Part shown: piece by piece, positions 6,802 through 20,435 of the stretch | Layout: every line of letters starts with the position of its first letter | How positions within the stretch are numbered: the stretch's first letter is position 1 | NCBI GenBank assembly: GCA_965203355.1 | Contig: OZ241889.1 | Coordinates: 3,872,001-3,936,000 of the forward strand | Length of the DNA stretch: 64,000 nucleotides | Reading direction: 5' to 3' | Source: Candidatus Latescibacterota bacterium | Lineage (GTDB): Bacteria > Latescibacterota > UBA2968 > UBA8231 | Made by a program: the position numbers and the translations under genes | The notes under the pieces: model-generated | Told to the model about the DNA's origin: nothing | Databases searched by the model: none | The model's input: the letters and a program-made list of their open reading frames with translations, nothing else

Positions 6802-8265
6802 ATGAGCGAAAGCACTCAAACCCTAGAGCAATTTGCCCAGCGCGATTACGAGTGGGGATTCGTCACCGACGTGGAAGCCGACGAGGCCCCGCCCGGCCTC
6901 AACGAGGAGATCATCCGCTTCATCTCCGCCAAAAAGAACGAGCCTGAGTTCATGCTCGAATGGCGGCTCAAAGCCTATCGCCGCTGGCTCACCATGGAGG
7001 ATCCAACGCGCCGCAAACAGAGCCAGCGCTGGGCCATGGTCCACTACCCCGACATCAACTACCAAGACATCGTGTACTACTCGGCCCCCAAGAAGAAACA
7101 GCTCGACAGCCTCGACGAGGTCGATCCCGAAATTCTGGCCACGTACCAAAAGCTGGGCATCCCGCTCGAAGAGCAGAAAATGCTCGCTGGTGTGGCCGTA
7201 GATGCCGTCTTCGACAGCGTCTCGGTGGCCACCACATTCAAGGATAAGCTGGCCGCCTTGGGCATCGTCTTCTGCTCCATGTCCGAAGCCATCCACAATC
7301 ACCCTGAGCTCGTGCAAAAGTACCTCGGCTCGGTCGTGCCCTACACCGACAATTTCTTCGCCACCCTCAACTCCGCGGTTTTTACCGACGGCTCTTTCGT
7401 GTACGTGCCGCCGGGCGTGCGTTGCCCCATGGAGCTATCGACGTATTTCCGCATCAACGCGGCGAACACCGGCCAATTCGAGCGCACCTTGGTCATCGCC
7501 GACGAGGGGGCGTATGTCAGCTATCTCGAAGGCTGCACAGCGCCCATGCGCGACGAAAACCAGCTCCACGCGGCCGTCGTCGAACTCGTGGCCCTCGGCG
7601 ACGCCCAGATCAAGTACTCCACTGTGCAGAACTGGTATCCCGGCGACGACGAGGGCAAAGGCGGAATCTACAACTTCGTCACCAAGCGCGGCGCGTGTCG
7701 CGGCGACCGCTCCAAGATCTCGTGGACCCAAGTCGAGACCGGCTCGGCCATCACCTGGAAGTACCCTAGCTGCATCCTCCAGGGCGATCACTCGGTCGGC
7801 GAATTTTACTCGGTGGCCGTCACCGCCAAGCGGCAGCAGGCCGACACCGGCACCAAGATGCATCACATCGGCAAAAACACCCGCAGCACCATTGTCTCCA
7901 AAGGCATTTCGGCCCAGCGCGGCCAAAACACCTATCGCGGCAAGGTGCAGGTGCTCAAAAACGCGACCGGCGCGCGCAATTTCACTCAGTGCGATTCCAT
8001 GCTCATCGGCGACCAATGCGGCGCGCATACCTTTCCCTACATCGAGGTCCGCAATCCCACCGCCCACGTCGAGCACGAGGCATCCACCTCCAAAATCGGC
8101 GAGGACCAGATTTTCTACTGCAACCAGCGCGGGCTTTCCACGGAAGACGCCATCTCCATGATCGTCAACGGCTTCTGCAAGGAAGTCCTCGCCGAGCTGC
8201 CGATGGAGTTCGCCGTCGAAGCGCAAAAGCTGCTCGGCATCAGCCTAGAGGGCAGCGTCGGGTAG
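6802..8265 (+). CDS. sufB: Fe-S cluster assembly protein SufB
   Basis: [68 protein letters not shown]. Confidence 0.98.
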
Positions 8266-8324: not shown

Positions 8325-9326
8325 ATGTCCAGCACCATCCCATACCAAGAGCACACCACCGAACCGGTCGATCTAGCGGAAGAAGAGGTGCCCACCATTG
8401 TGTTGCCCAATGGCGATCGGTTGGAGTTCCCCGGCTGCCGCGCCTACAAAATGTCCCGGTCCGAATTAGAAGAGTACGAGGGCCGCTATGAGTATTGGTA
8501 TGGTCCAACCGAAACCCTCATCGTCGTGGCCGACGAGCCCAGAGTCAGCGGGGACCACGAACTGCCCGCGCCCTATCTGATGCAACTAGTGCAACAAATT
8601 GCCGACGAGTGCGGGGCGCACTTTGTCCCCTTTGGCACGGTCAGCATCTGGAGTGCAAATGTCGAAGGCGTCCCTCGGGTCGCCATGCGTCCAGATCAGT
8701 GTCTTTACTTGCGTCCCCAGTCGGCGCGATTGCCCGACAAGAACGGGTTGAAGTTGGGCTTTCACACCTTGCCCGATGTGGTGTTGGAAGTCGATCACAC
8801 GACCGACATTCGGCGAGGAAAGCTGCATCAGTATGCGTTGTGGGGCTTTCCCGAAGTGTGGGTCGAAGTCCCCGAGGCGTACACGCCTAGCCGACGGGCC
8901 GGCAAGCCTCGATTGACGATCTATGTATTGGAAGGCAGTCAATACCGCGAAGCAGAAGCGAGCCGGGCGTTGGCGGGTTGGACGGCTAAAGAAATACACC
9001 GGGCACTCAACGAGCGGTTGAGGTGTTCGCCTGAGACGATAGCGGCACTGTTGCGGGTGGCGCGGGCACTAACGGCGCGTTTAGGCACGGCTGGTCCTGA
9101 AGGTACGCTGCGCTTGCGAATGCACCGTGAAGAAGGGCGTGAAGAAGGCAAACGAGATTTGTTGTGTCAGCAAGCGGCGTTGCGTTTCGGCGAGGATGTG
9201 GCCAAGGATCTGGCGGTGTTGCTCGCAGCCGTGTCGGGTGAAAACCTGACGCACGTGGGCGGCTGGATCGTAACGTCCCACAACGGAGATGAACTGCTCG
9301 GCCGAGTGCGCGAGAATGGGGCCTAG
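8325..9326 (+). CDS. Uma2 (DUF820)-like PD-(D/E)xK endonuclease-fold protein with an Rpn/DUF4351-like C-terminal tail
   Basis: PDQCLYL...LPDVVLEVDHTTD...KLHQYALWGFPEVWV is the Uma2 pattern; the tail reads REEGREEG...RFG. Codon style differs from the flanking suf genes. Confidence 0.75.
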   Translation: MSSTIPYQEHTTEPVDLAEEEVPTIVLPNGDRLEFPGCRAYKMSRSELEEYEGRYEYWYGPTETLIVVADEPRVSGDHELPAPYLMQLVQQIADECGAHFVPFGTVSIWSANVEGVPRVAMRPDQCLYLRPQSARLPDKNGLKLGFHTLPDVVLEVDHTTDIRRGKLHQYALWGFPEVWVEVPEAYTPSRRAGKPRLTIYVLEGSQYREAEASRALAGWTAKEIHRALNERLRCSPETIAALLRVARALTARLGTAGPEGTLRLRMHREEGREEGKRDLLCQQAALRFGEDVAKDLAVLLAAVSGENLTHVGGWIVTSHNGDELLGRVRENGA

Positions 9327-13540: not shown

Positions 13541-14011
13541 ATGAAACTCAGCTCAAGCGAAGAATACGGCTTGCGCTGCCTCTTGCAACTGGCTCGCCAA
13601 ACCCCGGGCAGCCTGACCATTCCGGAGATCAGCCAAGCCGAGGGGATCACCCATCACAACGTCGCCAAGCTCTTGCGCATTCTCCGGCAGGGCGGCTTTG
13701 TGGCCAGTGCCCGCGGCCAGCAAGGCGGCTACGCCCTCGCCAAGCCCCCGGACCAAATCGCCGTGGCCGACGCGGTCGCCGCGTTGGGCGGTCGCCTCTT
13801 CGACGCCGGTTTCTGCGATCACTTCGCCGGCAGCGCGGATTGCTGCACACACTCGCTGACGGCGTGTTCGGTGCGTGCGCTGTGGGAGCAAGTCCAGCAG
13901 GCCGTCGATCGCATTTTATCGCGCACCACCCTCGCCGACCTGCTCGAACAGGGCTACGCCCTCGCCGACGAAGAGGCGTTGCTCGATATATCGGAGAGTA
14001 CGCTGCGATGA
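13541..14011 (+). CDS. Rrf2-family transcriptional regulator (IscR/SufR-like, Cys-containing)
   Basis: EYGLRCLLQLA, wHTH with SARGQQGGYALA, and a C-terminal Cys cluster (FCDHF..DCC.H...CSVRALW); last gene of the suf cluster. Confidence 0.9.
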   Translation: MKLSSSEEYGLRCLLQLARQTPGSLTIPEISQAEGITHHNVAKLLRILRQGGFVASARGQQGGYALAKPPDQIAVADAVAALGGRLFDAGFCDHFAGSADCCTHSLTACSVRALWEQVQQAVDRILSRTTLADLLEQGYALADEEALLDISESTLR

Positions 14012-15513
14012 AAAAGGTCTTGCTGTGCTGGATCGGTGGAAAAGATTTGGATGCCTCACAAGGAAAAGATGTTGGCGAGGGTCCTATTGCACAGGCCGTA
14101 GAAAAACGCGGGTTTGACGAAGTATTTTTGATTTCAGACTACTCGCCCGACCGTGTAACTGCGTATGTCGAATGGGCTAAGAAAAGGAGCTCGACGCCGT
14201 ACCAACTACGCAGGGTGAAACTTTCAAGCCCGACTCACTTTGGCGAAATCTATGAGGCCGCGAGGGATGTGTGCAAAAAGGCTTTGGGCGACCAACCTGA
14301 TCAAGTCAAATTGACTTTTCACCTTAGTCCTGGTACGCCGGCGATGGCGGCGGTGTGGATCCTCCTAACGAAAATGGGCTTTCCCGCTAAATTAATCGAA
14401 TCTTCAAGAGAGCACGGCGTTCAAACGACGTCTGTTCCCTTTGAGATTCAGGCAAAATATCTGTCCGATCTACTGGCCAAACCCGACGCACAACTCCGCT
14501 CGGCCAGCGCAGGAAAACCCGCAGAAACGGCAGCTTTTGGCGACATAATCTACCGCAGTCAGAAGATGGCGGATTTGGTCGAAAAAGCGAAGCGAGTCGC
14601 AGTGCGGAACGTTCCCGTTTTGCTCGAAGGCGAGTCCGGCACTGGGAAGGAACTTTTTGCCCGCGCCATCCACAAACATAGCCTAAGAAAGGATAAGCCA
14701 TTTATCGCGGTGAATTGCGGTGCAATACCGCGCGATCTGGTGGAAGCCGAACTGTTTGGACACAAAAAAGGCGCGTTTACCGACGCACATGCTGAGCGTA
14801 AAGGTCATTTTGAACAGGCCAATGGCGGTACGCTCTTTTTGGATGAAATCGGCGAGTTACCCAAAAATATGCAGGTGAAATTGTTGCGCGTCCTCCAAGA
14901 AGGCGAGTTCCTCCCCCTCGGTGCATCCACACCCACCAAAGTAGATGTACGCATTGTGGCGGCGACAAATCGGAATCTCGTTGAAGAAGTACGCGAAGGA
15001 CGATTTCGAGAGGACTTGTTTTATCGGATTGTAGTGGCTTACCTCAAACTGCCGCCTTTGCGGGGCCGCGAGGGCGATTTGGGCATGCTGATCCGCCATT
15101 TTATTGATAAAATCAATCAGGAATACGAAAAGGAATACGAAGGACAGCCCGGTTACAAACGTAAAGAAATTTCCCCTAACGGAAAAAATGTTCTCATAAA
15201 CCATTCTTGGCCGGGCAATATACGCGAGTTGGAAAACACCCTGAACCGCGCCATGCTGGCCGACAGCAAAATTCTCGACGAACAAGATATTGAAGATGCA
15301 CTCTTACGCATCGACCATAAGGGCGGCAAAGATATACTGAATCGCCAGTTAGGTGGGGATTTTAACCTAAAGAAACTCATTAGCGAGGTCGCAAGGCACT
15401 ATCTTAAGCGAGCCGACAAAGAATCTCAAAACAACAGAACAGAAGCCGCAAGACTGTTAGGACTTCCCTCTCGTCAGACGTTTGACAACTGGAAGGAGAA
15501 GCACCAAGCATAG
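14008..15513 (+). CDS. Sigma54-dependent enhancer-binding protein with an N-terminal CARF/RtcR-like sensor domain
   Basis: ATG at 14008 overlaps the rrf2 stop. N-terminal VLLCWIGGKD...LTFHLSPGTPAMAAVWILL is RtcR/CARF-like. AAA+ motifs GESGTGKE, GAFTDA, LFLDEIG, RFREDLFYR, WPGNIRELEN. Fis-type HTH NRTEAARLLGL. Confidence 0.88.
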   Translation: MKKVLLCWIGGKDLDASQGKDVGEGPIAQAVEKRGFDEVFLISDYSPDRVTAYVEWAKKRSSTPYQLRRVKLSSPTHFGEIYEAARDVCKKALGDQPDQVKLTFHLSPGTPAMAAVWILLTKMGFPAKLIESSREHGVQTTSVPFEIQAKYLSDLLAKPDAQLRSASAGKPAETAAFGDIIYRSQKMADLVEKAKRVAVRNVPVLLEGESGTGKELFARAIHKHSLRKDKPFIAVNCGAIPRDLVEAELFGHKKGAFTDAHAERKGHFEQANGGTLFLDEIGELPKNMQVKLLRVLQEGEFLPLGASTPTKVDVRIVAATNRNLVEEVREGRFREDLFYRIVVAYLKLPPLRGREGDLGMLIRHFIDKINQEYEKEYEGQPGYKRKEISPNGKNVLINHSWPGNIRELENTLNRAMLADSKILDEQDIEDALLRIDHKGGKDILNRQLGGDFNLKKLISEVARHYLKRADKESQNNRTEAARLLGLPSRQTFDNWKEKHQA

Positions 15514-15527
15514 ACATTTGGCAAAGC

Positions 15528-15543
15528 TGGCACGGAATTTGCT
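15528..15543 (+). promoter_or_regulatory. Sigma54 (-24/-12) promoter
   Basis: TGGCAC-GGAAT-TTGCT matches TGGCAC-N5-TTGCW exactly, with GG-N10-GC spacing, 14 nt after the stop of the enhancer-binding protein gene. Confidence 0.85.
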
Positions 15544-15611
15544 TCTCTTCTATCAAGGATATGAAGCGAGGCTCAAATCACCCACCACCCGAAAGAGAAA
15601 GGAGAAATCTA

Positions 15612-15698
15612 ATGCAAAATGTGCTGCCAGCCATACTAGTTTCATTGGCTATATATGCCGGTCAACGCATCATTGATAAGATCGTTGATGGGCTTTAG
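15612..15698 (+). CDS. Small hydrophobic peptide 1, 28 aa (MQNVLPAILVSLAIYAGQRIIDKIVDGL)
   Basis: AAGGAG 7 nt before the ATG; frame conserved with its paralog at 15779. An in-frame upstream ATG at 15561 is an alternative start. Confidence 0.65.
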   Translation: MQNVLPAILVSLAIYAGQRIIDKIVDGL

Positions 15699-15778
15699 CA
15701 CGTAGCTCAACAGCTCGCTGGGCAGCGTCAATTCGTTGCCCAATCACCCATCACCCCAAAGAGAAAGGAGGTAATCTA

Positions 15779-15856
15779 ATGTTGCCAGCGATATTAATTC
15801 CACTGGCTATATATGCCGGTCAATGCATCATTGATAAGATCATTGATGAGCTTTAG
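15779..15856 (+). CDS. Small hydrophobic peptide 2, 25 aa (MLPAILIPLAIYAGQCIIDKIIDEL)
   Basis: AAGGAGGT SD; paralog of peptide 1 with frame and stop codon preserved. Confidence 0.65.
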   Translation: MLPAILIPLAIYAGQCIIDKIIDEL

Positions 15857-15869
15857 CATATAGCCAATA

Positions 15870-15905
15870 TCTCGCTGGGCAGCGTCAACTCGTTGCCCAG
15901 CGAGA
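15870..15905 (+). other. Stable RNA hairpin after peptide 2
   Basis: TCTCGCTGGGCAGCG-TCAACT-CGTTGCCCAGCGAGA forms a 15-bp stem with one G:U pair. There is no U-tract, so it is not a classical intrinsic terminator. Confidence 0.7.
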
Positions 15906-15940
15906 GTGCCTTCGTCTAAACCAAACAGAAAGGACTGATT

Positions 15941-16099
15941 ATGGCGCGAAGAACACGCGACGACGCACGGATAAGAACAGTCGAGAAAAAGCTGGGAATC
16001 GGGAACAGCCTCACGAATCCCAACGGACGCAATGCCCGTTCCGATAAAAAACTGGGGAATCTCCGTAAGAGTTGGGAAAAGTCTGGTAAGAAGAAATGA
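15941..16099 (+). CDS. Small basic protein, 52 aa (MARRTRDDARIRTVEKKLGIGNSLTNPNGRNARSDKKLGNLRKSWEKSGKKK)
   Basis: AAAGGA SD before the ATG. Internal repeat RDDARIRTVEK / RSDKKLGNLRK. Below the size cut-off of the ORF track. Confidence 0.65.
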   Translation: MARRTRDDARIRTVEKKLGIGNSLTNPNGRNARSDKKLGNLRKSWEKSGKKK

Positions 16100-16135
16100 A
16101 GTGTCGCAAAATCTATAATGAAAGGAGGTGATTCT

Positions 16136-16219
16136 ATGATAATATGGCAACCGACAGGCCCTTATATCGCTCTTGCCATCTTAAAATCATTATACAAATG
16201 GCTGGCGAAGCGGCGATAG
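16136..16219 (+). CDS. Small Fst/Ldr-like membrane peptide, 27 aa (MIIWQPTGPYIALAILKSLYKWLAKRR)
   Basis: Very strong SD AAGGAGGTG. A Pro-led hydrophobic helix is followed by W-L and a basic tail, as in type I toxin peptides. Confidence 0.62.
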   Translation: MIIWQPTGPYIALAILKSLYKWLAKRR

Positions 16220-16229
16220 CAGTTTGTGA

Positions 16230-16271
16230 TTCTATCAGGGGGTGGAGATTTACCTTCGTCTCCTGATAGAA
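16230..16271 (+). terminator. Hairpin closing the small-gene array (possible terminator)
   Basis: TTCTATCAGGGGGTGGAG ... CTTCGTCTCCTGATAGAA pairs fully on the + strand if G:U is allowed; followed by ATTTCTT. Confidence 0.55.
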
Positions 16272-16276
16272 ATTTC

Positions 16277-16305
16277 TTGACATGTCTTCTTGACACACGT
16301 AGGTT
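16277..16305 (+). promoter_or_regulatory. Sigma70-type promoter for the ATPase gene
   Basis: TTGACA-N17-TAGGTT, 34 nt before the ATG at 16340. TTCTTGACA is directly repeated within it. Confidence 0.55.
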
Positions 16306-16339
16306 TTCAACGTTCTTCCACTTAACTCGTGAGAAAATC

Positions 16340-17935
16340 ATGGCTATTAAATCTATAACCATAGAAAATTTCAAGGGCATCGGTGACGCCGTGACCATTC
16401 CGATTCGCCCGATCACTTTGCTGTTTGGTAAAAACAGCTCGGGTAAGTCAACAGTGTTGCAGGCCCTGTTATACATGTCACACGTAATAAAATACGAGGA
16501 TCCAGATCCATATAGTACAGATATAGATCGAGGTTATATTGATCTAGGTGGTTTTTATTCTTTAGTACATCGTCATGAATTGGATCGGAATATTCGCATC
16601 CGTATTGAATTCGGCGGTCAAGACCTTGAAAGATTTTATGAAGCTGAAGGTCCTTTTTTAAAGGGGTTACGAGACCCTATCCGTCGTGACTTGTACGGAT
16701 ATCTAAAATCCGTGTGGATAGAAGTTGTAACAGGTTGGAATGCTGAAAAAGATTATACCGAGGTGCTGTCGCTCAGCTTGGGCTTGAATGGAATAGAGTG
16801 GTATTGTAAAACAAATAAAAGACCGGAGATATTTCCTTCTATAAATACAATTGGATCGAATCGCACACAATGGGTTAGTAACCACGGTAGATACGACGGT
16901 ACCAATTATTATAATATTGAGCACCCCATCATTATCGATAATGTAGACAATAAAATGAAGCAAAACATTTTATTAGCACTCACCACTAGGAAGCTAGCCA
17001 AAGATCTTGATCCTCTGTTAGCATCTATACGTCACTCGTATTATAGTATCAGAGATAAGCTGATAAAAATTGGAGTAAGCGTATCGACCAGTATAAGATA
17101 TTTGGGACCAATCCGAAAATTACCCCCTCGCAACTTTGCCCCACAAAAGACACCTAATGAATCAAAATGGGCAACAGGACTAGAGGCATGGAACATACTT
17201 GGTAGAGAAAGAAAATCTCTGATGATCGAAAGTATAAACTACTATATGAAAGATATTTTGAAGCTCGGTTACACTATTAAAAGAAAAGAATACATCTTGC
17301 TGGATATAGATAGCAAGATCATGAAAAACATGGAAGAATCTGACAGCATTAACCGATTAAAAGAGTTACCTCGCCAAGTTAGACTGAAGCTCCACAGCGA
17401 AAAGAATGACGTTGATTTAGATCCCTTAGATGTCGGTTTGGGAATTTCCCAAGTTATTCCCGTTTTGGTGGGAATTAAAAATTTTGCTACGAAGAATATT
17501 TTTGCTGTCGAAAATCCAGAGATTCATCTTCACCCTGCCGCCCAAGTCGCTCTAGGCGACGTGTTTATTGATAGCAAAAATCCAAACAATACTTTACTCA
17601 TTGAGACGCATTCTGAACATCTGTTGTTGAGATTACTTCGACGTGTGCGCGAGACCAATGTTCGTATCTCAGAAAAGTATGATAAGCTGGTAAGGGAAAG
17701 GCGACAAAATTCAATAAATCCTATAGATGAAGATGAGATGCTAGAGCTGGATATTCGTTCTAGGGAATCTGAGCATCCATATCACCACTTAGAGCCAGAC
17801 GATTTATCAATAGTCTATGTCATGCCAACATCAGAGGAAGTCAAGTTAACTCTATTTACTGTAACAGGTGACGGCGACTTCGAAGAACTTTGGCCAGAAG
17901 GCTTTTTTGAAGAACGTATGGAGGAGCTTTTCTAA
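16340..17935 (+). CDS. ABC-type (AAA_15/AAA_21-like) ATPase with a C-terminal DUF3696-like segment
   Basis: IKSITIENFKGI; Walker A GKNSSGKS; YLGPIR; signature DVGLGISQV; Walker B VENPEIHLHP; H-loop IETHSEHLLLR; C-terminal WPEGFFEE. AT-rich. Confidence 0.88.
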   Translation: MAIKSITIENFKGIGDAVTIPIRPITLLFGKNSSGKSTVLQALLYMSHVIKYEDPDPYSTDIDRGYIDLGGFYSLVHRHELDRNIRIRIEFGGQDLERFYEAEGPFLKGLRDPIRRDLYGYLKSVWIEVVTGWNAEKDYTEVLSLSLGLNGIEWYCKTNKRPEIFPSINTIGSNRTQWVSNHGRYDGTNYYNIEHPIIIDNVDNKMKQNILLALTTRKLAKDLDPLLASIRHSYYSIRDKLIKIGVSVSTSIRYLGPIRKLPPRNFAPQKTPNESKWATGLEAWNILGRERKSLMIESINYYMKDILKLGYTIKRKEYILLDIDSKIMKNMEESDSINRLKELPRQVRLKLHSEKNDVDLDPLDVGLGISQVIPVLVGIKNFATKNIFAVENPEIHLHPAAQVALGDVFIDSKNPNNTLLIETHSEHLLLRLLRRVRETNVRISEKYDKLVRERRQNSINPIDEDEMLELDIRSRESEHPYHHLEPDDLSIVYVMPTSEEVKLTLFTVTGDGDFEELWPEGFFEERMEELF

Positions 17936-17937
17936 CA

Positions 17938-18945
17938 ATGATCTATGAATATGCACTGGATCCCGAACTTGTTGTAACATGGAGTTCTGAAGATTGTGAC
18001 TACTTCATCGACAAGTTTGGCTTTGATAGGGATGGCAACGCAACAGGTCGCATAATATCTAAATATCCATATCCTAATAATAACCGCGACATAAGTTGGG
18101 ATAATATAGTTAGCAAAACGCTCAAAAGAACTTGTCGTACTAGTAAAGAAAAAAAAATCATAGACGTGTTATTGGAAGAAATAAAAAAGGAAAAAAGGAG
18201 TATCACTCGTTCTATTACATCTAGGGATTGGGATCCGAATAAATCATGGCTTGAAAACGCCGAGGCTGAGCAGGAAGCAAATATTAACCGTCCTTTTCGT
18301 GCGATTCTTGCCCGTGAAAACCCAAGAAAAAAAGACTACGTGATTACTAATACAAGGCCTGCGTCCCTCAAAGATCAATCGCCTTGTCTTTGGCGTGTAT
18401 CGAGAGGAATAACCATAGCTCGAAGCACAAAGGTAATGGCAGAGTGCTTTGGTCCAATACTGAGATGTGCAACTTTAATCCTTTTTATAGATCCAAATTT
18501 CGATCCAAAAAAGTCTAAATGGAGAAAACCGTTGAGAAAATTCCTAGAAATTATTTATGATTCAAAGCATCGTGGTGTCATAGTTCAATACCTTACCTCT
18601 AAGAAAATATTTAGTAGCCAAAATGTATGTCAATGTGAATGGAATCTTTTTTGCAAAAAATGCAAATCCCTCAAGGAATACGTTGGCTCTGGATGTGATC
18701 TAATCGTCTGCTGTCTTAACAAAAGAAATAGTGATCAAGAACTCCATGACCGATTTATCCTTACTAACATTGGTGGGGTAACGATAACTTACGGTTTAGA
18801 TATTGGTAGAGGTAAGAATAACATCCATCTTATGGACAGAGAATCCTACAATACTCATTTTAAGCTGTATCGTACACATGTTGAGAAGGAATTTGAGTGT
18901 AAAAAGTGGATGGACGACTCGCGACACTCGAAATCGACATCCTAA
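17938..18945 (+). CDS. Hypothetical ATPase partner with a C-terminal HDRFILT motif (PLD-like nuclease fold candidate)
   Basis: 335-aa AT-rich ORF starting 2 nt after the ATPase stop. FIDPNFDP and LHDRFILT...G...GLD motifs resemble single-motif PLD-like domains. Confidence 0.65.
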   Translation: MIYEYALDPELVVTWSSEDCDYFIDKFGFDRDGNATGRIISKYPYPNNNRDISWDNIVSKTLKRTCRTSKEKKIIDVLLEEIKKEKRSITRSITSRDWDPNKSWLENAEAEQEANINRPFRAILARENPRKKDYVITNTRPASLKDQSPCLWRVSRGITIARSTKVMAECFGPILRCATLILFIDPNFDPKKSKWRKPLRKFLEIIYDSKHRGVIVQYLTSKKIFSSQNVCQCEWNLFCKKCKSLKEYVGSGCDLIVCCLNKRNSDQELHDRFILTNIGGVTITYGLDIGRGKNNIHLMDRESYNTHFKLYRTHVEKEFECKKWMDDSRHSKSTS

Positions 18946-19439
18946 TTCCGGGGCGCGGCGAGGTCCCTTTCAGCGATCTCCACACTAGCCCCAACCCCGA
19001 TAGCCGCGGATCGCTCCTTCGCCCTTGCCTGCTGCCCTTTTTCAGTGTATTTATAATCCACTTTTGTATTCGTCTTGGCTGAGCAAAAACAAACCCAACT
19101 CATGGCTGAACATTACTATCGATCACTAGCAAAAAATCGCGCTGGGAGGTTTTGATGGGCACTTGGGCACGAGCATGGACACCAACTTTGACCGAGCGAG
19201 AAACCGTGCTTTTCGTTTTGAATGAGGACGAGCTAAATGCACGCTCGCCAGAGCACCGTTGATTTTTCAACGAAGTGTATCATCCGCAATTTGACAGAGA
19301 TCGCTGGAAAAGCACCTAACCCAGCATTTGCATTGGACAACATGGCCAATTTGGCGCGAGTTAATGAACCGATGAAATACAACGCGCATTTTGGGGGCCA
19401 AAAAATGGGTCGTAGAGCATTCACAAAGGCTGAATAGCA

Positions 19440-20435
19440 ATGGGAGATTCAGGTAGTACAGTGGCAGTGACCGGTGCTGCGGGCTTTCTCGGCAGCCACA
19501 TATGCCGCGCCTTGTTGCACGGCGGATATGCGGTGCGCGCTGTCGCGCACGAGGGCAGCAATCGCAAACTTCCCGCGGACCTGAGCGATCAGGTCGAATG
19601 GCGACTGGCCGATGTCCGCAATCCCGAGTCGTTAAACCAAGCATTCCAACACGCCCACGCCATCGTTCACAGTGCTGAAATTGCGACAGTTGACGCCGAT
19701 CCCAAAGGGTTGGCAGATGCAATCAACTTGACGGGTACTCGCAACGTGATTCAAGCATGTATTAGCACCGGCGTCCACCGACTGATACACATCAGTTCCA
19801 TACACGCATTCAGCCCGCTACGCGGAACGATTCTGAGTGTCAGTTCAAAACTGGGCCAAGACTCCAAGATCCCCTACACGGCCACCAAAGCCGAAGCGCA
19901 CGTAAGCGTACTCGATGCGGCGAGAAGCGGTTGGCTCAATGCATCTATCGTCTGTCCGGCAAACCTCATAGGTCCCGGCGACAGCGAGCCGACCCGCGCC
20001 GGTCGCATCCTGCTGGCCATAGCGCACAAGCGACTCCCGTGGCTCATCAACGGAGGGGGCTGGTGGAGCGACGTGCGAGATGTGGCAAATGCCATCGCCC
20101 ATGCGGTGGGAGCCAACGAATACGGGGGCGAGGTTCACTTTACGGCCGGGCGATACGCAAAAATCCGCGGACTAGCGCACCTGTGTTCTCAGGTTTTGGG
20201 ACATAGCGTGATGCGCCCGGTCATACCCTACTTTCTAGCGCGGACAGGTTTGCCCTTGATCAAGCGGAACCCACCGTTTTTTTACTCCCGCCATTCACTC
20301 AAACTCCTGCGCGACAGCCCGCTATCCGTTGATGAATCCTCGGCGCGGAATCAACTCGGATACGAACCGCGGCCCCTTAACGAATCGGTCCGCGACGCCC
20401 TCGATTGGTTCGCCGCGCAGGGAACGCGCTTGTAA
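19440..20435 (+). CDS. NAD-dependent epimerase/dehydratase (dihydroflavonol-reductase/HpnA-like)
   Basis: VTGAAGFLG, HISSIHA, YTATK (YxxxK), DVRDVA. Confidence 0.85.
   Translation: MGDSGSTVAVTGAAGFLGSHICRALLHGGYAVRAVAHEGSNRKLPADLSDQVEWRLADVRNPESLNQAFQHAHAIVHSAEIATVDADPKGLADAINLTGTRNVIQACISTGVHRLIHISSIHAFSPLRGTILSVSSKLGQDSKIPYTATKAEAHVSVLDAARSGWLNASIVCPANLIGPGDSEPTRAGRILLAIAHKRLPWLINGGGWWSDVRDVANAIAHAVGANEYGGEVHFTAGRYAKIRGLAHLCSQVLGHSVMRPVIPYFLARTGLPLIKRNPPFFYSRHSLKLLRDSPLSVDESSARNQLGYEPRPLNESVRDALDWFAAQGTRL

Follow-up and report, generated by a model that had tools for sequence, protein, structure and literature searches.

We describe a cassette of about 5 kilobases (kb) in a Candidatus Latescibacterota genome that brings together one regulator gene, one sigma-54 promoter, four small genes, and a two-gene ATPase/partner module. 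The window, by which we mean the whole stretch of DNA analyzed, is 64 kb long and comprises positions 3,872,001 to 3,936,000 of contig OZ241889.1 (assembly GCA_965203355.1). We estimate a probability of roughly 60% that this cassette is a horizontally mobile defense unit of low guanine-cytosine (GC) content, in which an RtcR-like CARF enhancer-binding protein gates a predicted sigma-54 promoter right behind its own gene and thereby controls a set of small peptides and an NsnBC-type module; each step of the mechanism is one that we infer.

A first-pass annotation of this DNA, made from the letters alone, had proposed an AT-richer island that holds an activator with a CARF/RtcR-like N-terminal domain, an exact sigma-54 promoter 14 nucleotides (nt) after its stop codon, four tiny genes, each with its own Shine-Dalgarno (SD) box, and an ABC-type ATPase coupled to a PLD-like protein with an HDR motif. 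The drop in GC and the open reading frames (ORFs) bear out this island with all of its elements (Table 1), and the CARF and PLD assignments held up in profile and structure comparisons.

Table 1. Features of the cassette (window positions) and of related loci (locus positions); aa, amino acids
Feature	Position	Strand	Description
Regulator	14008-15513	+	501 aa; CARF ~1-170, AAA+ 180-345, lid, Fis-type helix-turn-helix (HTH) 464-497
Predicted sigma-54 (-24/-12) promoter	15528-15542	+	TGGCAC-N5-TTGC; sequence TGGCACggaatTTGC; 14 nt past the regulator stop (15511-15513)
pepA, copy 1	15612-15698	+	28 aa, hydrophobic, acidic/amphipathic tail, own SD
Hairpin after pepA copy 1	15714-15742	+	GC-rich, without T-run
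pepA, copy 2	15779-15856	+	25 aa, within tandem duplication
Hairpin after pepA copy 2	15870-15905	+	15-nt arms, 93% complementary
pepB	15941-16099	+	52 aa, basic, net charge +12, motif with two RSD boxes
pepC	16136-16219	+	27 aa, cationic hydrophobic; divergent member of a 24-25-aa family
Terminator-like hairpin	16230-16271	+	18 pairs, T-rich tail; begins 10 nt past the pepC stop
TTGACA hexamer	16277-16282	+	possible -35 element of an internal sigma-70-type promoter for the ATPase module; putative role
NsnB-type ABC ATPase	16340-17935	+	531 aa; Walker A 30-38, GxG signature 366-368, Walker B ending E391-N392, H-loop H424, WPEGFF tail
Partner	17938-18945	+	335 aa; PIN-like 1-150, PLD-fold 153-325; starts 2 nt past the ATPase stop
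Decayed regulator 3'-end copies at secondary promoters	L135:7365-7575, L139:6410-6620, L143:6005-6215		
GIY-YIG-like small protein	L135:7575-8006, L139:6702-7049, L145:5843-6319		
Gly/Ala/Leu-rich ORFs of L134/L146	oriented 7880-8005, 8378-8515, 8706-8831		

The regulator and its predicted promoter

The regulator matches the PADLOC profile PDLC01995 (RtcR_PspF2--CARF_AAA_HTH) with an E-value of 3.6e-195 over profile positions 1-479 of 481, and its residues 1-134 also match the PADLOC profiles for CARF4 (1.1e-11) and Csx1/Csm6 (4.3e-7). The RtcR_PspF names reportedly go back to Makarova 2020 (Nucleic Acids Research). In Pfam, the central part of the protein matches Sigma54_activat (1.9e-72) plus the lid domain, and the C-terminal HTH is recognized as HTH_8 (0.011) and HTH_28 (0.0038); HTH_8 is detected in 7 of 15 members of the regulator family, with a best E-value of 3.6e-6. 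When a profile of these 15 members was compared with Escherichia coli RtcR using hhalign, the two aligned with a probability of 100 (E-value 1e-41) and 31% identity across 349 aligned columns, starting at regulator residue 65 and RtcR residue 72 and spanning the latter half of the CARF domain as well as the AAA+ domain. A sequence search of the PDB with residues 1-175 gave no match at E<=1. The Walker A and Walker B motifs and the sigma-54 contact loop are invariant in the family alignment, the loop reading GAFTDA (residues 255-260) across the whole family. As judged from these sequence comparisons, the regulator has a CARF-AAA+-HTH architecture. Its homologues at 58-75% identity are spread over many phyla.

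The predicted promoter is the only exact match to TGGCAC-N5-TTGC on either strand of the window, compared to a mean of 0.21 per window in shuffled sequence. Its GG and GC doublets stand 10 nt apart and agree exactly with the consensus, from which its use by RpoN is predicted. An rpoN gene was found in all five relatives searched, and among relatives each genome has 9-25 matches that resemble bacterial enhancer-binding proteins.

We compared the cassette with a locus set of 37 rows, made up of the window, six full-length loci from a collection of species genomes, two metagenome loci, 26 loci from the phylum of locus L001, and two plasmids. Because L005 and L124 are one contig, the set holds 36 distinct loci. 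In the search of the L001 phylum, a full-length regulator match was present in 30 of 167 genomes. The metagenome scan relied on patterns drawn from the AAA+ core, and for this reason 78 of its 80 loci were generic sigma-54 activators lacking the N-terminal domain; these were dropped, and L012 and L013 were used. The motif TGG[CT]A[CT]-N5-NTGC lies between -10 and +150 nt of the regulator stop in 25 of the 37 rows, corresponding to 24 of the 36 distinct loci, compared to a background rate of 0.0063 per 160 nt elsewhere in the same loci. Among the 12 rows that lack it, L013 and L153 show a TCGC variant, and in L011 and L146 the motif is found some 370-390 nt further on, displaced by insertions. 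The position of this predicted promoter behind the regulator is thus conserved and not due to chance. Recurrence of the motif, together with the recurrence of the small-gene families described below, is what the first-pass annotation had anticipated behind homologous regulators.

In locus L011 the regulator is split over three frames (L011:6001-7900), yet the peptides, ATPase, and partner are intact; the insert of ~390 nt between regulator and promoter includes a hairpin with a T-run. L146 carries a similar insertion plus a transposase-like gene.

Five loci (L134, L135, L139, L143, and L146) have extra promoters with this sequence, placed ahead of a later (second or third) ATPase module or of the small genes at its head. 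In the three of these that we aligned (L135, L139, and L143), the 170 nt upstream of the extra promoter are a remnant of the 3' coding end of the regulator with an internal deletion of ~73 nt. That this remnant has been kept suggests that the enhancer lies inside the coding end of the regulator and was copied together with the promoter. The enhancer may therefore travel with the promoter when modules are duplicated, and the retained block, which maps to around 15375-15415 in the window, is a candidate for it.

Small genes behind the promoter

Each of the four small ORFs (25-52 aa) has an AAAGGA(G)(G) box 6-7 nt upstream. Three of them encode hydrophobic peptides, with best 15-residue Kyte-Doolittle windows of 1.3-2.1, and the 52-aa pepB product is basic. 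The leader, SD box, ORF, and hairpin of pepA are tandemly duplicated with a period of 157-166 nt, and the repeats D1-D3 are 87-93% identical. The small genes had been described as separated by hairpins. This is true of the hairpins behind ORFs 1 and 2, and another follows ORF 4, but there is none between ORF 3 (pepB) and ORF 4 (pepC).

Four families of small genes, pepA to pepD, recur behind regulators. The pepA family was found in six loci (the window, which has it twice, L001, L005, L011, L142, and L151; seven copies aligned), pepB, with 52-53 aa, in nine distinct loci, and pepD in L002 and L003. Members of the pepC family (L001-L004, L011, L138, L142, L145, L150, and L152) have 24-25 aa and a basic C-terminal end. 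They sit directly upstream of the ATPase gene, and variants precede the second ATPase genes of L135, L139, and L146. In codon alignments, the ratio of nonsynonymous to synonymous substitution rates (dN/dS; NG86, ratio of means) is 0.15 for pepB, 0.30 for pepA, and 0.43 for pepC (nine copies), and differences among pepB copies number 184, 159, and 463 at codon positions 1, 2, and 3. On this pattern of substitution, the small ORFs are conserved coding genes under purifying selection and not chance frames.

A search of 1.84 billion proteins with pepB returned 55 cluster representatives at E<=1e-3, of which at least one is a spurious match to a Rib-domain surface protein. Pfam, NCBIfam, and PADLOC have no family that matches pepB, and in the Atlas it falls into unnamed clusters only. 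An AlphaFold2 (AF2) model of pepB has a pLDDT of 89.7. The best fold match reaches a Z-score of 4.3, with many ubiquitin-like/beta-grasp entries at 2.8-3.8, and we consider this too weak to name a fold. The domain has an internal repeat around its two RSD boxes, and some relatives (among P0142, P0153, P0145, and P0170) have Lys/Ala-rich tails resembling histone H1 or a doubled domain.

The hairpins are conserved as well. That of pepA recurs in L001, L005, L011, L142, and L151, and in L011 one of its pairs shows a compensatory change. In each of the 11 intergenic regions that were folded, the final small ORF is followed by a GC-rich hairpin, with matching sequence in nine and a different one in L002 and L003, and a TTGACA hexamer follows the hairpin in the same 9 of 11 regions (not in L002 and L003); candidates for a -10 element are weak. 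The hairpin and hexamer leave room for the peptides and the ATPase to be expressed as one transcript or as two, and the ATPase pair may also have its own promoter.

Other small proteins accompany secondary promoters. One of them, 115-158 aa long, combines a GIY-YIG-like motif with a tail rich in Arg and Gly; it follows secondary promoters or the partner gene, and its copy in L135 matches no PADLOC family. Further hydrophobic ORFs of 41-45 aa, rich in Gly, Ala, and Leu, follow secondary sigma-54 promoters in L134 and L146. Micropeptides of unrelated sequence thus recur in such a context.

The ATPase and partner module

The ATPase matches the Pfam families AAA_15 (1.1e-27) and AAA_21 (1.1e-20). 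Its best PADLOC match is NsnB (2.8e-44, residues 3-528 against positions 2-337 of 345), ahead of PDC-M55A, HEC-03B, and AriA, the AriA profiles matching at 6.3e-31. Its Walker B motif ends in EN (E391-N392) and its signature is GxG (G366-x-G368). DUF3696 is present in 18 of 22 members of the ATPase family; it was not detected in the ATPase of the window at E<=0.01, which nonetheless shares the invariant WP-GFF residues of the tail. Some of the ATPase copies in L135, L139, L150, and L152 are longer at the N-terminus by 45-60 aa, an extension that the window copy lacks.

The partner carries the sequence LHDRF at residues 269-273, in which H270 and R272 of the HDR motif are invariant. No Pfam or PADLOC family matches it, including the PADLOC profile for NsnC, and two other partner subtypes from related loci likewise match no PADLOC family. 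An AF2 model of the partner (pLDDT 81.9, pTM 0.83) retrieved PLD-fold proteins with Foldseek at 1.6e-5 and weaker. In VIA-align comparisons, residues 153-325 of the model gave Z-scores of 9-11.6 to SauUSI, NucT, Nuc, Zucchini, and MITD1, with 21% identity to MITD1, and residues 1-150 matched PIN domains at 5.2-7.0 only. The modeled C-terminal domain clearly has a PLD-like fold. In the Atlas, relatives of the partner lie near clusters that in part carry MIT_C. A prediction of the ATPase-partner complex scored 0.00, a value that speaks neither for nor against an interaction.

Related loci and genomic setting

By tblastn, the ATPase is encoded downstream of the regulator in 20 of 35 rows, eight of which have two or three copies, and a partner of the same broad family is present in 19 rows. 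Other homologous regulators are followed by different cargo, in agreement with the defense association that had been proposed for them. For example, type I restriction-modification (R-M) genes follow the regulator in L012, L013, L128, L129, L137, and L141, as well as on an Azotobacter plasmid. In L130 the regulator precedes a PDC-M09A-like membrane protein and a methylase/specificity fusion, and on a Rhodoferax plasmid it precedes vWA, PP2C, and kinase genes. The ATPase-partner pair also occurs without the regulator. On a Methylocella tundrae plasmid (L156/L157) it stands after WYL-hsdR-hsdM-hsdS and before SIR2-HerA genes, and on a Deinococcus plasmid (L155) it lies behind a 585-aa protein with a sub-threshold match to Piwi. 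The pair of ATPase (DUF3696) and partner thus looks like a portable two-gene module.

The cassette lies in a low-GC island (~14000-19400) with a GC content of 0.37-0.53, compared to 0.59-0.66 on both sides, flanked by the suf operon and an Rrf2-family gene on one side and an epimerase gene on the other. Promoter-to-partner DNA has a GC content of 0.40-0.48 in all 11 cassette loci that come from high-GC hosts, compared to 0.53-0.64 in the flanks. Insertion sequence (IS) transposases break up several copies of the cassette. The low GC content and the IS interruptions fit a mobile, fast-turning defense island. An Rfam scan of positions 13900-19600 found no match at E<=1.

The ATG of the regulator and the TGA of the preceding Rrf2-family gene (13541-14011) overlap in an ATGA (14008-14011), so the regulator and the end of the suf operon may share a transcript. 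The gene upstream of the regulator in L005 overlaps in the same manner.

Proposed mechanism and alternative explanations

We propose that the CARF domain binds a nucleotide or RNA-end ligand made upon infection or RNA damage, and that ligand binding would free the AAA+ domain to open the sigma-54 promoter. The resulting transcript would yield membrane peptides from pepA and pepC together with the basic product of pepB, and read-through of the terminator-like hairpin at 16230-16271 would supply more ATPase and partner. By analogy with what has been proposed for NsnB-NsnC, Septu, and PARIS, the ATPase may hold and control a PLD-type nuclease. The peptides probably target the membrane and form a second arm that arrests growth, and cleavage products of the nuclease may feed back onto the CARF sensor.

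Several observations weigh against this proposal. The contact loop GAFTDA departs from the canonical GAFTGA. The regulator scores below the cut-offs for RtcR itself, both in Pfam (E-value 0.0013, with the family detected in 1 of 15 members) and in NCBIfam (RNA_repair_RtcR, 353 bits, cut-off 650), which is why we call it RtcR-like and not RtcR; these scores, together with the absence of rtc genes from the cassette, rule out RtcR proper. With a terminator-like hairpin and a conserved TTGACA behind pepC and in front of the ATPase gene, the ATPase pair could be a separate constitutive unit. Six loci (L132, L133, L144, L147, L148, and L149) have a homologous regulator followed by metabolic genes and no promoter motif. 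Finally, we know of no demonstrated nuclease activity for PLD-fold proteins that have HDR in place of HxK, such as MITD1. The regulators of the six motif-less loci form a sub-branch at ~54% identity; in L144, the one that was scanned, genes for a HAD hydrolase, an enolase-superfamily protein, a GH3 protein, and one protein of unknown function lie downstream.

Two alternative explanations concern the small ORFs. That they are chance frames in a long 5' leader is hardly credible. They are very short and unfamiliar to family libraries, but their frames, starts, SD boxes, and stops are conserved across diverged loci, third-position changes are in excess with dN/dS below 0.5, and pepB has homologues among the proteins searched. 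A better case can be made for regulatory leaders, in which translation of the small ORFs would melt or permit the hairpins and set the level of sigma-54 read-through into the ATPase gene, the peptides not being effectors. This would account for hairpins close behind pepA copies 1 and 2 and pepC, for a pepC family that always lies directly upstream of the ATPase gene, second modules included, for the conservation of the hairpin after pepC, and for the fact that pepC is the least constrained of the peptides. We nevertheless regard a mainly regulatory role as unlikely given the clear purifying selection on pepB and pepA, the membership of pepB in a wider protein family with a confidently predicted fold, the strong SD box of every ORF, and the retention of a comparable leader in loci that have no peptides.

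The remaining alternatives concern what the cassette does as a whole. It could serve a response to RNA damage or envelope stress, protecting or repairing the cell in the manner of Rtc or Psp without restricting phage. RtcR and PspF are the nearest characterized relatives of the regulator, and the Psp regulon includes small membrane proteins. Such a role is quite unlikely, however, as neither rtcA, rtcB, nor psp genes are among the cassette genes in the ORF list or by Pfam, homologous regulators head R-M, NsnBC-type, and other defense-type modules, and the low GC content and IS insertions are typical of defense islands. An Rtc or Psp operon as such is ruled out by the absence of these genes. 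It is also conceivable that two independent neighbors share an island and not a function, one being the regulator with its peptide operon and the other the ATPase/PLD module under a sigma-70 promoter of its own. In favor of this are the terminator-like hairpin and TTGACA that separate the parts, and the plasmid-borne pairs that lack this regulator and neighbor either type I R-M/SIR2-HerA genes or a Piwi-like gene. Against such independence, loci without peptides have the sigma-54 promoter directly before the ATPase gene, second modules have sigma-54 promoters of their own, and regulator and ATPase occur together in 20 of 35 rows; we find it improbable.

A more elaborate version of the function of the cassette can be imagined, which we offer as a tentative and rather doubtful extension. 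The cassette would be a two-tier immune circuit, of a kind so far undescribed, in which the NsnBC-type pair acts first. Its cleavage products, or nucleotides born of infection, would be read by the CARF domain, and one or several sigma-54 units, with the enhancer carried in the copies of the regulator 3' end, would then release membrane-active pepA and pepC and a nucleic acid-binding pepB to shut down the cell. The toxins would be silenced by the activator-dependent promoter only, with no antitoxin.

To our knowledge, RtcR-like CARF regulators of defense operons are predicted switches whose promoters, targets, and outputs had yet to be identified. With one regulator, a textbook sigma-54 promoter, and a readable output, the ~5-kb cassette could provide a defined test bed for such a switch. 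Our analysis suggests that NsnB/NsnC pairs serve as portable effector modules, open to coupling with NsnA, R-M operons, a Piwi-like gene, or a CARF regulator. It also suggests that such systems can include conserved micropeptide genes, which are passed over by gene callers and defense-finding tools. As a whole, the cassette looks like an inducible form of bacterial immunity.

Comparison with known systems

Type I toxins such as TisB, Hok, and Ldr have 25-30 aa, a single hydrophobic helix, and a charged end. The hydrophobic peptides of the cassette resemble them in size, helix, and charged end, as judged by hydropathy and charge only. No antisense RNA gene was seen in the cassette, though no search aimed at one was made. 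Unlike in type I toxin-antitoxin systems, control of the cassette peptides would be exerted through an activator-dependent promoter. The ATPase and its tightly coupled effector gene recall PARIS, Septu, and Gabija, which also have AAA_15/AAA_21 ATPases, and the AriA profiles of PARIS match the ATPase of the window. However, neither a Toprim nor an HNH domain is present in the partner, and the profiles for AriB, PtuB, and GajB do not match it. We rejected membership in PARIS or Septu because the fold of the partner differs (PIN-like and PLD-like, with no AriB Toprim/DUF4435). We know of no sigma-54 regulator in PARIS, Septu, or Gabija. With the E. coli RtcR-rtcBA locus, the cassette shares a CARF-AAA+-HTH activator adjoining a sigma-54 promoter. 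It differs from that locus in having neither rtcA nor rtcB, in the sequence of the contact loop, and in the placement of its targets, which lie downstream on the same strand and are not divergent.

The closest counterpart of the two-gene module is found in the Menshen system. EN in Walker B and a GxG signature were named as peculiarities of NsnB in a 2025 analysis (PMC12065111), which also describes NsnC with a PB-PLD1 effector as an inactive PIN domain followed by a PLD-like domain whose HDR motif resembles that of MIT_C. The ATPase of the window resembles NsnB in its best PADLOC match, its EN and GxG residues, and, across the family, its DUF3696 tail, and the partner appears to follow the plan of NsnC, with a PIN-like domain and an HDR domain of the PB-PLD1/MIT_C kind, the likeness to PB-PLD1 resting on the published description. 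As judged from profiles and models, ATPase and partner therefore appear to be an NsnB/NsnC-type module from which NsnA is missing, rather than an unfamiliar pair. The sensor NsnA (ParB-DUF262 plus ParBDB, encoded upstream of NsnB in Menshen) is absent from the cassette, to which this profile scan of the window was confined, and the nearest DUF262 match lies more than 90 kb from the regulator in all five relatives; where Menshen has NsnA, the cassette has the CARF regulator, the sigma-54 promoter, and the small genes. As its search is described, the Menshen survey began from DUF262 proteins, so loci without NsnA fell outside it.

The regulatory idea is already in print. Makarova et al. (2014; PMC4012209) described an RtcR-like CARF-NtrC-HTH family that is not linked to Rtc and often lies beside R-M systems, and proposed sigma-54-dependent activation upon sensing of a phage-related ligand. 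In their work on CoCoNuT, Bell et al. (2024; PMC11090510) placed RtcR homologues at the 5' end of defense "superoperons". The cargo described in the two papers includes R-M, CoCoNuT, Druantia-type, and other systems. The regulator of the cassette has the same domain architecture and the same 5' place before co-directional defense genes, and the prediction is the same, namely that a signal sensed by CARF turns on downstream defense through sigma-54. The earlier view that no described system has this architecture was consequently too strong. The passages of these papers on such regulators say nothing of micropeptide arrays, NsnBC-type cargo, or the promoter and its duplicated copies, and a literature search, with most subscription journals outside its coverage, returned no paper on micropeptides or NsnBC cargo behind a regulator of this kind. 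Relative to those passages, three predicted features are apparently new: the sigma-54 promoter with its duplicated units, the conserved micropeptide genes, and an NsnBC-type cargo that dispenses with NsnA.

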